64,000 nt of DNA from Clostridia bacterium (GCA_017430135.1 JAFRNM010000001.1:271242-335241); one strand, 5' to 3'; positions 7,022 through 7,122 are shown, counted from the stretch's first letter. Notes: generated by a model not told the origin, from the letters alone. Numbers and translations are program-made.

Positions 7022-7122
7022 TTTTGGGACACTCTTGAATTTTGGGACACTCTTAAAAATCAAGGTTTTTGAAAACCTTGATTTTTAAGAGTGTCCCAAA
7101 ATTCCAAAATTCAAGGGGGCCA
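7022..7122. repeat. palindromic intergenic element, GGGACACTCTTAAAAA family, copy 1 (nested perfect inverted repeat, about 100 bp)
   Basis: ttgggacactcttaaaaatcaagg tttttgaaaa ccttgatttttaagagtgtcccaa, flanked by an outer inverted pair gggacactcttgaatttt / aaaattcaaggggg. Confidence 0.8.

Follow-up and report, generated by a model that had tools for sequence, protein, structure and literature searches.

A family of short, imperfectly palindromic repeats was found in the chromosome of an uncultured, low-GC, spore-forming Clostridium, and it is probably a lineage-specific, non-coding family of extragenic palindromes of the REP/REPIN (BIME-like) kind. The window, that is, the whole 64-kb stretch of DNA that was analysed, contained 18 units of the TTTKGGGACACTCTTAAAA family at eight intergenic loci. 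When the window was combined with a closely related strain recovered from a metagenome, about 60 distinct element loci with about 130 distinct units were counted in about 0.46 Mb. A previous inspection of the window (the sequence-only reading) had described the elements as REP/MITE-like. The REP half of that description held, since the repeats are genome-wide, extragenic, built from an imperfect-palindrome unit and free of target-site duplications, while the MITE half was not supported, there being no target-site duplication and, in the DNA searched, no parent IS. Strict membership in the REP/REPIN class, which entails a RAYT partner and a tetranucleotide tag, is not established, and the tag is absent. 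On present evidence, the family is an ordinary kind of genomic repeat that involves no new mechanism.

The window has a G+C content of 29% with a strong strand bias and belongs to a low-GC Clostridia chromosome. It encodes a Clp ATPase (ClpB/C-like), NrdD/NrdG, SpoIIIAA/AB/AE, phosphofructokinase, Pgk, PyrB, PurA, two acetate kinases and Xer-type recombinases, a gene content that identifies the host as a spore-forming member of the Clostridia. A phage origin of the window was rejected, as a megablast search against phages gave no relevant match and the genes were those of chromosomal housekeeping and sporulation. Several metagenome assemblies include contigs identical or nearly identical to the window. 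Its closest relatives that carry a name are MAGs assigned to uncultured Clostridium sp. and to a rumen Clostridia bacterium, with a nucleotide identity of 80-89%.

The excess of the motif was large. Allowing at most 2 mismatches, GGGACACTCTTAAAA was matched 13 times in the window (11 exact, two with 2 mismatches) when 0.11 matches were expected, and a count of 13 was reached in none of 100 shuffled sequences. A search with the 19-mer TTTTGGGACACTCTTAAAA at up to 5 mismatches recovered the 18 genuine units, all of them within the eight loci listed below, and no further locus in the 64-kb window. The top-ranked results of an inverted-repeat finder were these same loci. The motif was indeed present at each of the eight places that had been reported, although the description of most of the individual copies had to be revised.

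The first copy (7022..7126), located 3' of a beta-propeller protein gene (4890-7016), is a nested element with units at 7022 (+, degenerate), 7040 (+) and 7083 (-) and a decayed outer right arm at 7104-7126. It is a class I doublet, as defined below, with the inner module A5-TCAAGG...CCTTGA-T5, 33-nt arms that match at 100% and a predicted fold of -56.9 kcal/mol (z -10). The second copy (17780..17890), between spoIIIAA (16918-17778) and spoIIIAB (17916-18491), is likewise nested, with an inner doublet at 17794-17864, degenerate outer units at 17780 (+) and 17872 (-), inverted repeats of 97% and 96% and a fold of -65.5 kcal/mol. The additional outer pair that had been noticed in these two copies was present in both, but that of 7022-7126 was only 78% complementary.

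Five of the copies had been called perfect palindromes of 57-110 bp, a phrase that applied to the third copy alone, the class II doublet at 22504..22560, which has 27-nt arms and a 3-nt loop, lies upstream of the phosphofructokinase gene and folds at -41.1 kcal/mol. The stretch 23799-23873, taken earlier for a complete perfect palindrome, proved to be the core of a 103-nt palindrome with 50-nt arms of 94%, the class I doublet at 23785..23887 (copy 4), which occupies the convergent spacer 3' of pfk (22637-23773) and has a fold of -72 kcal/mol (z -17). The supposed degenerate palindrome at 30546-30597 is instead a direct tandem of two units on the + strand (30541..30600; copy 5), of which the unit at 30547 is exact and the one at 30575 carries a 2-nt deletion. 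It directly follows the canonical terminator (30503-30526) of a xerC-like gene, has no long hairpin and folds no better than shuffled sequences (z -0.6). A degenerate doublet at 36865..36929, flanked by a HAD hydrolase gene (36149-36856) and pgk (37027-38208), has 25-nt arms of 80% and a fold of -23.5 kcal/mol. The class III doublet at 52540..52606 (copy 7) lies between pyrB (51599-52531) and the purA promoter; the stretch 52542-52603 is not a perfect palindrome, having arms of 93% separated by an asymmetric 16-nt spacer (TTCAAGGTTTTCGAC).

The remaining locus, 15393..15417 (+), had been listed as a fragment. It is a single degenerate unit downstream of ORF 13523-15274 that forms a hairpin of its own, GTACTTTT-GGGGACACTTTC-AAAAAGTA, with TACTTTT and AAAAGTA on the two sides of GGGGACACTTTC. 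The neighbouring genes at 9.6-15.3 kb, which encode an NrdG-like radical SAM protein, a dCMP deaminase, YebC and two proteins without Pfam domains, include no reverse transcriptase, and neither a reverse transcriptase nor Avd was detected among the genes tested at 11529-16817, so the DGR-like locus that had been proposed beside this unit is unsupported by these genes. The region 11529-16817 differs in gene content between strains. In the window, two paralogous proteins without Pfam domains (11529-13259 and 13523-15274) are followed by a PDDEXK_2/Rpn-family nuclease, and at the corresponding place (L063 2112-6553) the 98.5% strain has another set of genes that includes a 625-aa protein with a pilin-like N-terminus.

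The basic unit is an imperfect palindrome of 21-33 nt in which a T-run is followed by GGGA-CAC-TCTT and an A-run, according to the formula (x)CTTTTT-GGGA-CAC-TCTT-AAAAAG(x'). The invariant part is TTT(T/G)GGGACACTCTTAAAA, and the core was unchanged in about 130 units while the flanks varied. On the GGGA-strand, GGGA pairs with TCTT through a pairing that includes two G·T(U) pairs, giving a 12-15-bp stem capped by a CAC triloop. The unit folded at -13.3 kcal/mol (z -5.8) on one strand and at -7.8 kcal/mol on the complementary strand, where A·C mismatches arise; the two G·T positions make the unit asymmetric, and it therefore has an orientation. Around 129 units, the position frequencies showed the T-run and A-run and then sequences of the GAA, GAC or TCAAGG type, and no GTAG or CGTC tetranucleotide at the foot of the hairpin.

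Units were combined in several ways. The 72 clusters comprised 35 inverted doublets (><), 26 singlets, 6 direct tandems and 5 nested arrangements, the nested or extended forms having degenerate outer units (GGGACACCCTTGAATTT) ahead of the inner ones. The doublets fell into three classes. Class I doublets are symmetric, with a 33-37 nt spacer of the form A5-TCAAGG-(palindromic centre)-CCTTGA-T5, whose inner part differs in sequence from locus to locus and keeps its palindromicity. Class II doublets have a 17-nt spacer (AAAAAGTCAAACTTTTT), and class III doublets an asymmetric spacer, TTCAAGGTTTTC(A/G)AAC, that was found at at least 10 loci and in both orientations, so that one specific composite sequence has been copied around the genome. 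The family is thus composed of sub-families, including this asymmetric-spacer class. The variable central loop of the sequence-only reading is variable as reported, but it is better described as a set of variable yet palindromic inner arms distributed over three doublet classes. Full doublets folded at -35 to -72 kcal/mol and could form hairpins of 55-130 nt.

The idea that every unit consists of a conserved loop on a co-varying stem was considered and rejected; over 135 units, the complementarity of the flanks (6.34) barely exceeded that of permuted flanks (5.92 ± 0.14). The most striking co-varying flanks (GTTAAC, GAAC/GTTC, GATAA/TTATC and CCTTGT/ACAAGG) belonged mainly to singlets, and these pairs can be explained as collapsed doublets or sub-families. 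In a related species, two hairpins were present 3' of the orthologue of window ORF 34759-36063 (L012 4880-4965). One is a normal unit hairpin, GAACTTT-GGGGACACTCTT-AAAAGTTC, and the adjacent one, directly 5' of a tRNA gene, has a similar loop and swapped tracts (GAACAAAAG-GGGCACTCT-CTTTTGTTC), so that a tip resembling that of the unit is carried here by another stem.

The repeats are not confined to the window. A metagenome scan with TTTKGGGACACTCTTAAAA gave 65 loci, 45 of which lay on about 35 non-overlapping contigs (436 kb) of one JGI metagenome, Ga0129311; these contigs represent a strain 98.5% identical to the window. The sampled DNA had about one locus per 8 kb, as did the window. Among 185,579 species-representative genomes, the exact 19-mer gave 15 single hits, about half of them in related low-GC Clostridia, which had 1-2 exact 19-mers per MAG. 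The matches in genomes that are unrelated and higher in GC (Gelidibacter, Owenweeksia, Planctomycetales and others) were single copies and were discounted, as their number, about 9, was that estimated to arise by chance in 596 Gb searched on both strands. The 1-2 copies in the relatives indicate that the family is present in the genus-level neighbourhood and has been strongly amplified or homogenised in this species; relative to its relatives, the amplification is strong.

The family is previously undescribed. When the window was searched against Rfam 15, only three tRNAs passed the gathering threshold and no repeat was matched; at a permissive E-value, the hits were generic eukaryotic miRNA-precursor hairpins far below threshold. 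Searching the literature for the core gave nothing but unrelated primer sequences, none of which contained the 15-mer. The family was absent from IMG/VR viral contigs, plasmids and phages, and the suggestion that the repeats might be fragments of known IS ends found no match in the plasmid, phage or viral sequence searched.

The two arms of the elements do not vary independently. In an alignment of the 21 class I doublets, 95.4% of the arm-arm cells were complementary, and both sides had changed in 16 of 38 pairs (73 cells), a figure that was not equalled in any of 500 shuffles. The base preceding the core formed a T·A pair in 11 copies and a G·C pair in the other 10, with no mismatch. Differences between strains were seen in elements whose flanks were about 98.5% identical. 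The loop had flipped from TG to CA in copy 1 (7022) and from CTA to TAG in copy 4 (23785), and copy 4 also differed from the sister strain by a concerted T>G plus A>C in both arms, at the base adjoining the core. One-sided changes were seen in copies 2 and 7, and the outer arms of copies 2 and 3 had indels of 12-17 nt. The elements are hot spots in which both arms are kept alike. Extrusion as hairpins or cruciforms would lead to this, as would recombination of arm against arm, and we infer that a mechanism of one of these kinds operates on them.

A scheme of this sort can be outlined for the family as a whole. DNA-level processes that pass through single-strand hairpins or cruciforms would spread and homogenise the copies. 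The agent could be a HUH/Y1 enzyme of the RAYT type that recognises hairpins and has its gene elsewhere in the genome, or the copies could be spread by template switching and gene conversion. They would persist where little harm is done, just past stop codons, and any effect on transcripts, such as partial termination at the class I A5-stem-T5 module or protection of 3' ends, would be a by-product; terminator or mRNA effects would be at most secondary.

The turnover of the elements appeared to be slow. All six window elements that could be compared were present in the 98.5% strain, so that no very recent transposition was caught, a result that counts against the REP-like reading. Some sites were retained at 80-89% identity. 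L022 and L011 share the unit upstream of spoVAC, whose core is intact and whose flanks have diverged, and a doublet of L033 was kept in L014 with one arm decayed. Such core-intact sites (L011/L022 and L014/L033) would also fit a selected function, which is a second point against the REP-like reading. Other sites had changed. In place of the L067 doublet, L059 has a different small hairpin, and 3' of ORF 34759-36063 the place of the two unit-like L012 hairpins described above is taken in the window by a plain terminator. The pyrB-purA spacer is 17 nt long in L089, from a related species, and 97 nt in the window, where it includes copy 7; the end of pyrB and the purA promoter (TTGACT...TATAAT) are conserved between the two despite the missing copy. 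After purA, L089 has a unit, of which at most a remnant is found in the window. Between related species, there have been both gains and losses of copies. Slow, mostly vertical turnover without target-site duplication matches the descriptions of REPINs and is unlike that of typical DDE-type MITEs.

The possibility that the elements are classical MITEs, namely internally deleted copies of a DDE-type IS whose conserved arms are terminal inverted repeats mobilised in trans, was weighed against these data and is very improbable. Inverted-repeat ends, a length of 55-130 bp, an intergenic location and many copies would all suit a MITE. None of the 35 doublets, however, had a target-site duplication of at least 3 bp; 2-bp flanking matches occurred in 9 of the 35 and had no consistent sequence. 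The singlets and direct tandems are also unexplained by a pair of terminal inverted repeats, and no IS carrying TTTKGGGACACTCTTAAAA-like ends occurred in the 0.46 Mb or in the plasmids, phages and viral contigs. A possible source of transposase for a MITE was the multi-copy PD-(D/E)XK 'transposase' family (PF12784/TIGR01784), represented by the gene at window 15888-16817 and three paralogues. As a mobiliser this Rpn/PDDEXK_2 nuclease was rejected, because the four paralogues are diverged, share no common flanks and are not bordered by units.

The enzyme that mobilises REPs elsewhere, a Y1 HUH transposase (RAYT) whose single-copy gene usually has the repeats on its flanks, was sought as well. 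A RAYT/IS200-like transposase had been suggested as a partner, but none was detected by single-sequence phmmer in the approximately 0.46 Mb sampled, which may represent no more than a modest fraction of the genome. As a single-sequence query against the six-frame ORFs of the loci, E. coli RayT (locus L088) gave no match, nor did an approximate IS200 TnpA query; the best hit of these Y1/RAYT searches was a SpoIIE fragment (E = 0.06). No other transposase adjoined the elements or occurred elsewhere in the sample. Its multi-copy proteins were M23 peptidases, ABC ATPases, PBPs, Xer-type recombinases and the PD-(D/E)XK family discussed above. The genes bracketed by elements, examined as transposase candidates, were all ordinary: spoVAC-AD-AE, pfk, a Crp/Fnr-type regulator, spoIVB, pyrH and the genes for an HD-domain protein, exonuclease III, TatD and RNase Y. 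The lack of a Y1 or other transposase in the sample, together with the missing GTAG/CGTC tag typical of RAYT-linked REPs, weighs against the REP-like reading. RAYT group 1 has been reported in Clostridia, with low 16-mer abundance for that group (PMC5581495).

The elements were exclusively intergenic across the approximately 60 loci, the single 'inside' call being an ORF that runs off the end of its locus. As had been observed, the copies in the window follow stop codons and are never within genes; at the six loci measured, the element began 6-57 nt past the end of the upstream ORF, and by the ORF table 36870 begins 14 nt, and 15393 begins 119 nt, past the upstream stop. The spacers with elements were co-directional in 33 cases, convergent in 10 and divergent in 8, roughly in proportion to the background (240/40/39). 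In 26 '++' spacers, the median distance was about 20 nt from the end of the upstream ORF and about 93 nt to the next start. Among the 30 unpaired units, 22 had GGGACAC on the G-rich, mostly coding strand (p = 0.016). The flanking genes were a mixture of ordinary housekeeping and sporulation genes. Elements border the sporulation genes spoVAC-AD-AE (L022 6108-8525), spoIVB, spoIIE and the spoIIIA operon (window 16918-20198), in which one element lies between spoIIIAA and spoIIIAB; the loci at L046 5526-6551 and L060 44-733 also belong to the elements beside sporulation genes, and many other neighbours are housekeeping genes.

The location just past stop codons raises the question of whether the repeats act on transcripts, either as standardised intrinsic terminators formed by the inner A5-TCAAGG...CCTTGA-T5 module or as 3'-end stabilisers that block 3' exonucleases. 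The A-tract/stem/T-tract form has been described as typical of low-GC Firmicute terminators (PMC1590033), and it was by means of this class I module that 8 of 44 element spacers passed a simple terminator test. The predicted RNA hairpins are very stable, and the unit folds better in the sense than in the antisense direction and is biased toward the sense strand. Against this explanation, 1) the full hairpin has its T-run 5' and its A-run 3', an arrangement reported to be rare among Firmicute terminators (PMC1590033), 2) classes II and III and the singlets have no GC stem followed by a T-run, so that the form of an intrinsic terminator is taken only by some class I inner modules, 3) by a simple uniform criterion, independent canonical terminators were equally common in spacers with elements (13/44) and without them (52/195), 4) a canonical terminator can come before the element, as it does at copy 5 and at the L067 doublet, and another follows the L022 unit, and 5) elements occur in the 8 divergent spacers and within the spoIIIA operon. 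The reversed tracts, the adjacent canonical terminators and the equal frequencies indicate that the elements are not the terminators of this genome, and the suggestion that termination is their main role was not supported; a transcript-level function of either sort is distinctly unlikely. A hairpin of canonical terminator-like form with a T-run (AAAAATCTGTTGCATCTGCAACAGATTTTTTGC) is present at window 7216-7245, 3' of the first element and some 120 nt before nrdD. It could act as an attenuator in the nrdD leader, or it could be where the upstream gene is really terminated.

A host cis-element was also considered, in which the 11-nt core GGGACACTCTT, with the T- and A-tracts or within a hairpin, would be a DNA- or RNA-protein site of the host maintained by selection. 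Nucleoid-associated proteins or a sporulation regulator are candidate binders, and SpoIIID-like sites of the GGACA type are presumably a parallel for the core. The invariance of the core in about 130 units with variable flanks is what such a site would predict, as are the sites conserved across species with the core intact. The copies at spoIIIAA/spoIIIAB, upstream of spoVAC, around spoIVB and after spoIIE, the L012 hairpin that has a similar loop on a different stem in another species, and the orientation bias of the unpaired units point in the same direction. Near-identity over 19-30 nt, with flanks and spacers common to whole sub-families, goes far beyond what a binding site needs and indicates copying. 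Moreover, the relatives hold only 1-2 exact copies, sites are gained and lost without change in the neighbouring promoters, the neighbours are mostly unrelated housekeeping genes, and the elements lie closer to the upstream stop than to the next start. A binding site as the primary explanation is therefore rather unlikely, and the terminator, protein-binding-site and MITE readings are all less well supported than the REP-like one.

A more speculative version of the REP-like reading, to which we give a small chance, would have the repeats as a REPIN-type, autonomous-looking population of replicators in Clostridia that depends on something other than a canonical RAYT. The invariant GGGA-CAC-TCTT tip would then be read by another enzyme specific for hairpins, or the host would have taken it over for protein or RNA recognition. 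Recognition or co-option of the tip, for example in the neighbourhood of sporulation genes, would explain why the core remains intact while the flanks decay at orthologous sites.

The closest resemblance is to the REP, BIME and REPIN sequences of Enterobacteria and Pseudomonas (Bertels & Rainey 2011, PMC3116915; PMC3337134). These are likewise short, imperfectly palindromic, extragenic units in tens to hundreds of copies. They occur alone, in tandem clusters and most often as inverted doublets, in which two units parted by a short spacer form one long hairpin; they have a sub-family ('quasispecies') structure and no target-site duplication, and they persist mostly vertically with slow gain and loss. 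They differ from the Clostridium repeats in their hosts, since the latter belong to a low-GC Clostridium, and in their GC-rich stems, where the Clostridium stems are very AT-rich with T5/A5 tracts. The Clostridium repeats also lack the GTAG/CGTC tag of the RAYT-linked REPs, and the sampled DNA yielded no RAYT gene.

Inverted pairs of DNA uptake sequences (DUS/USS) and Correia elements share with the present repeats a short invariant core, inverted pairs 3' of genes and stable stem-loops. The DUS/USS of Neisseria and Pasteurellaceae also occur within genes, with a density of about one per kb, and are linked to natural competence. In contrast, the Clostridium copies are all intergenic, with a conserved stretch of at least 19 nt and common spacers, and nothing like the DUS/USS density in coding DNA was observed, no unit being located within a credible ORF. 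The Correia elements of Neisseria have TA duplications and IS-like terminal inverted repeats, whereas the Clostridium doublets have no target-site duplication. Inverted DUS pairs have been noted as intergenic stem-loops (PMC1590033).

The BOX, RUP and SPRITE elements of Streptococcus pneumoniae and the enterococcal stem-loop repeats (Petrillo et al. 2006, PMC1590033) are, like the present family, lineage-specific, modular, hairpin-forming and intergenic, occur in low-GC Gram-positive hosts and have no known transposase of their own. There is no sequence similarity to them, as judged through Rfam, which holds described families; the Clostridium unit is much shorter and its doublets are near-perfect palindromes. 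The A-tract/T-tract terminators of low-GC Firmicutes (PMC1590033) have the same post-stop location and the shape of the class I inner module, but the Clostridium elements differ in their reversed tracts, in the conservation of sequence across loci and in their co-existence with ordinary terminators. A 2006 survey of low-GC Firmicutes that included two Clostridium species found intergenic stem-loops that were not accounted for by large dispersed repeat families (PMC1590033).

The family is of moderate interest, chiefly since few of its kind have been documented in low-GC Firmicutes and the sampled DNA yielded no mobiliser. To our knowledge, the biology of REPINs and RAYTs has been worked out almost solely in Proteobacteria, and a well-populated, lineage-amplified REPIN-like family in a Clostridium would test whether such replicators exist beyond the RAYT/GTAG paradigm. 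The repeats would also serve as a marker for strain typing. Annotators should be cautious, since the hairpins mimic terminators and can break or confuse MAG assemblies and repeat-based predictions, such as the 'DGR-like' call.

Several other features of the region were recorded. The right end of the window (60987-64000) runs into an integrated mobile element that adjoins two tRNA genes (60987-61060 and 61222-61293), encodes a tyrosine integrase (61443-62738) and an HTH regulator, and has a G+C content as low as 21-26%. On longer contigs (L089/L091 1-11296), the same element encodes Phage_rep_org_N, topoisomerase III, FtsK_gamma, Fic, ParB and a relaxase. No repeat unit was present in the mobile element, either at 60987-64000 or on L089/L091 1-11296. 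In the sister strain (L081 6779-7788), an additional 1-kb segment encoding a 309-aa membrane protein lies between the second acetate kinase gene and trpS; the difference, absent at window 50481-50490, is a membrane-protein gene that bears no relation to the repeats.

On the - strand at 23881-26485, two overlapping ORFs (24473-26485 and 23881-24486) both match the ATPase family phrog_12316, the first covering positions 21-675 of the profile and the second 678-850. The split is also found in the sister strain (L035) and is either a conserved two-ORF arrangement or an old frameshift. Two overlapping short ORFs of 103 and 95 aa at 54170-54749, both of which match PF02441 (Flavoprotein), look like a split gene, and the arrangement was called likewise in all of the metagenome contigs fetched (L001-L006). 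Finally, at 47977-50479 a phosphotransacetylase gene is followed by tandem acetate kinase paralogues (427/395 aa and 399 aa).
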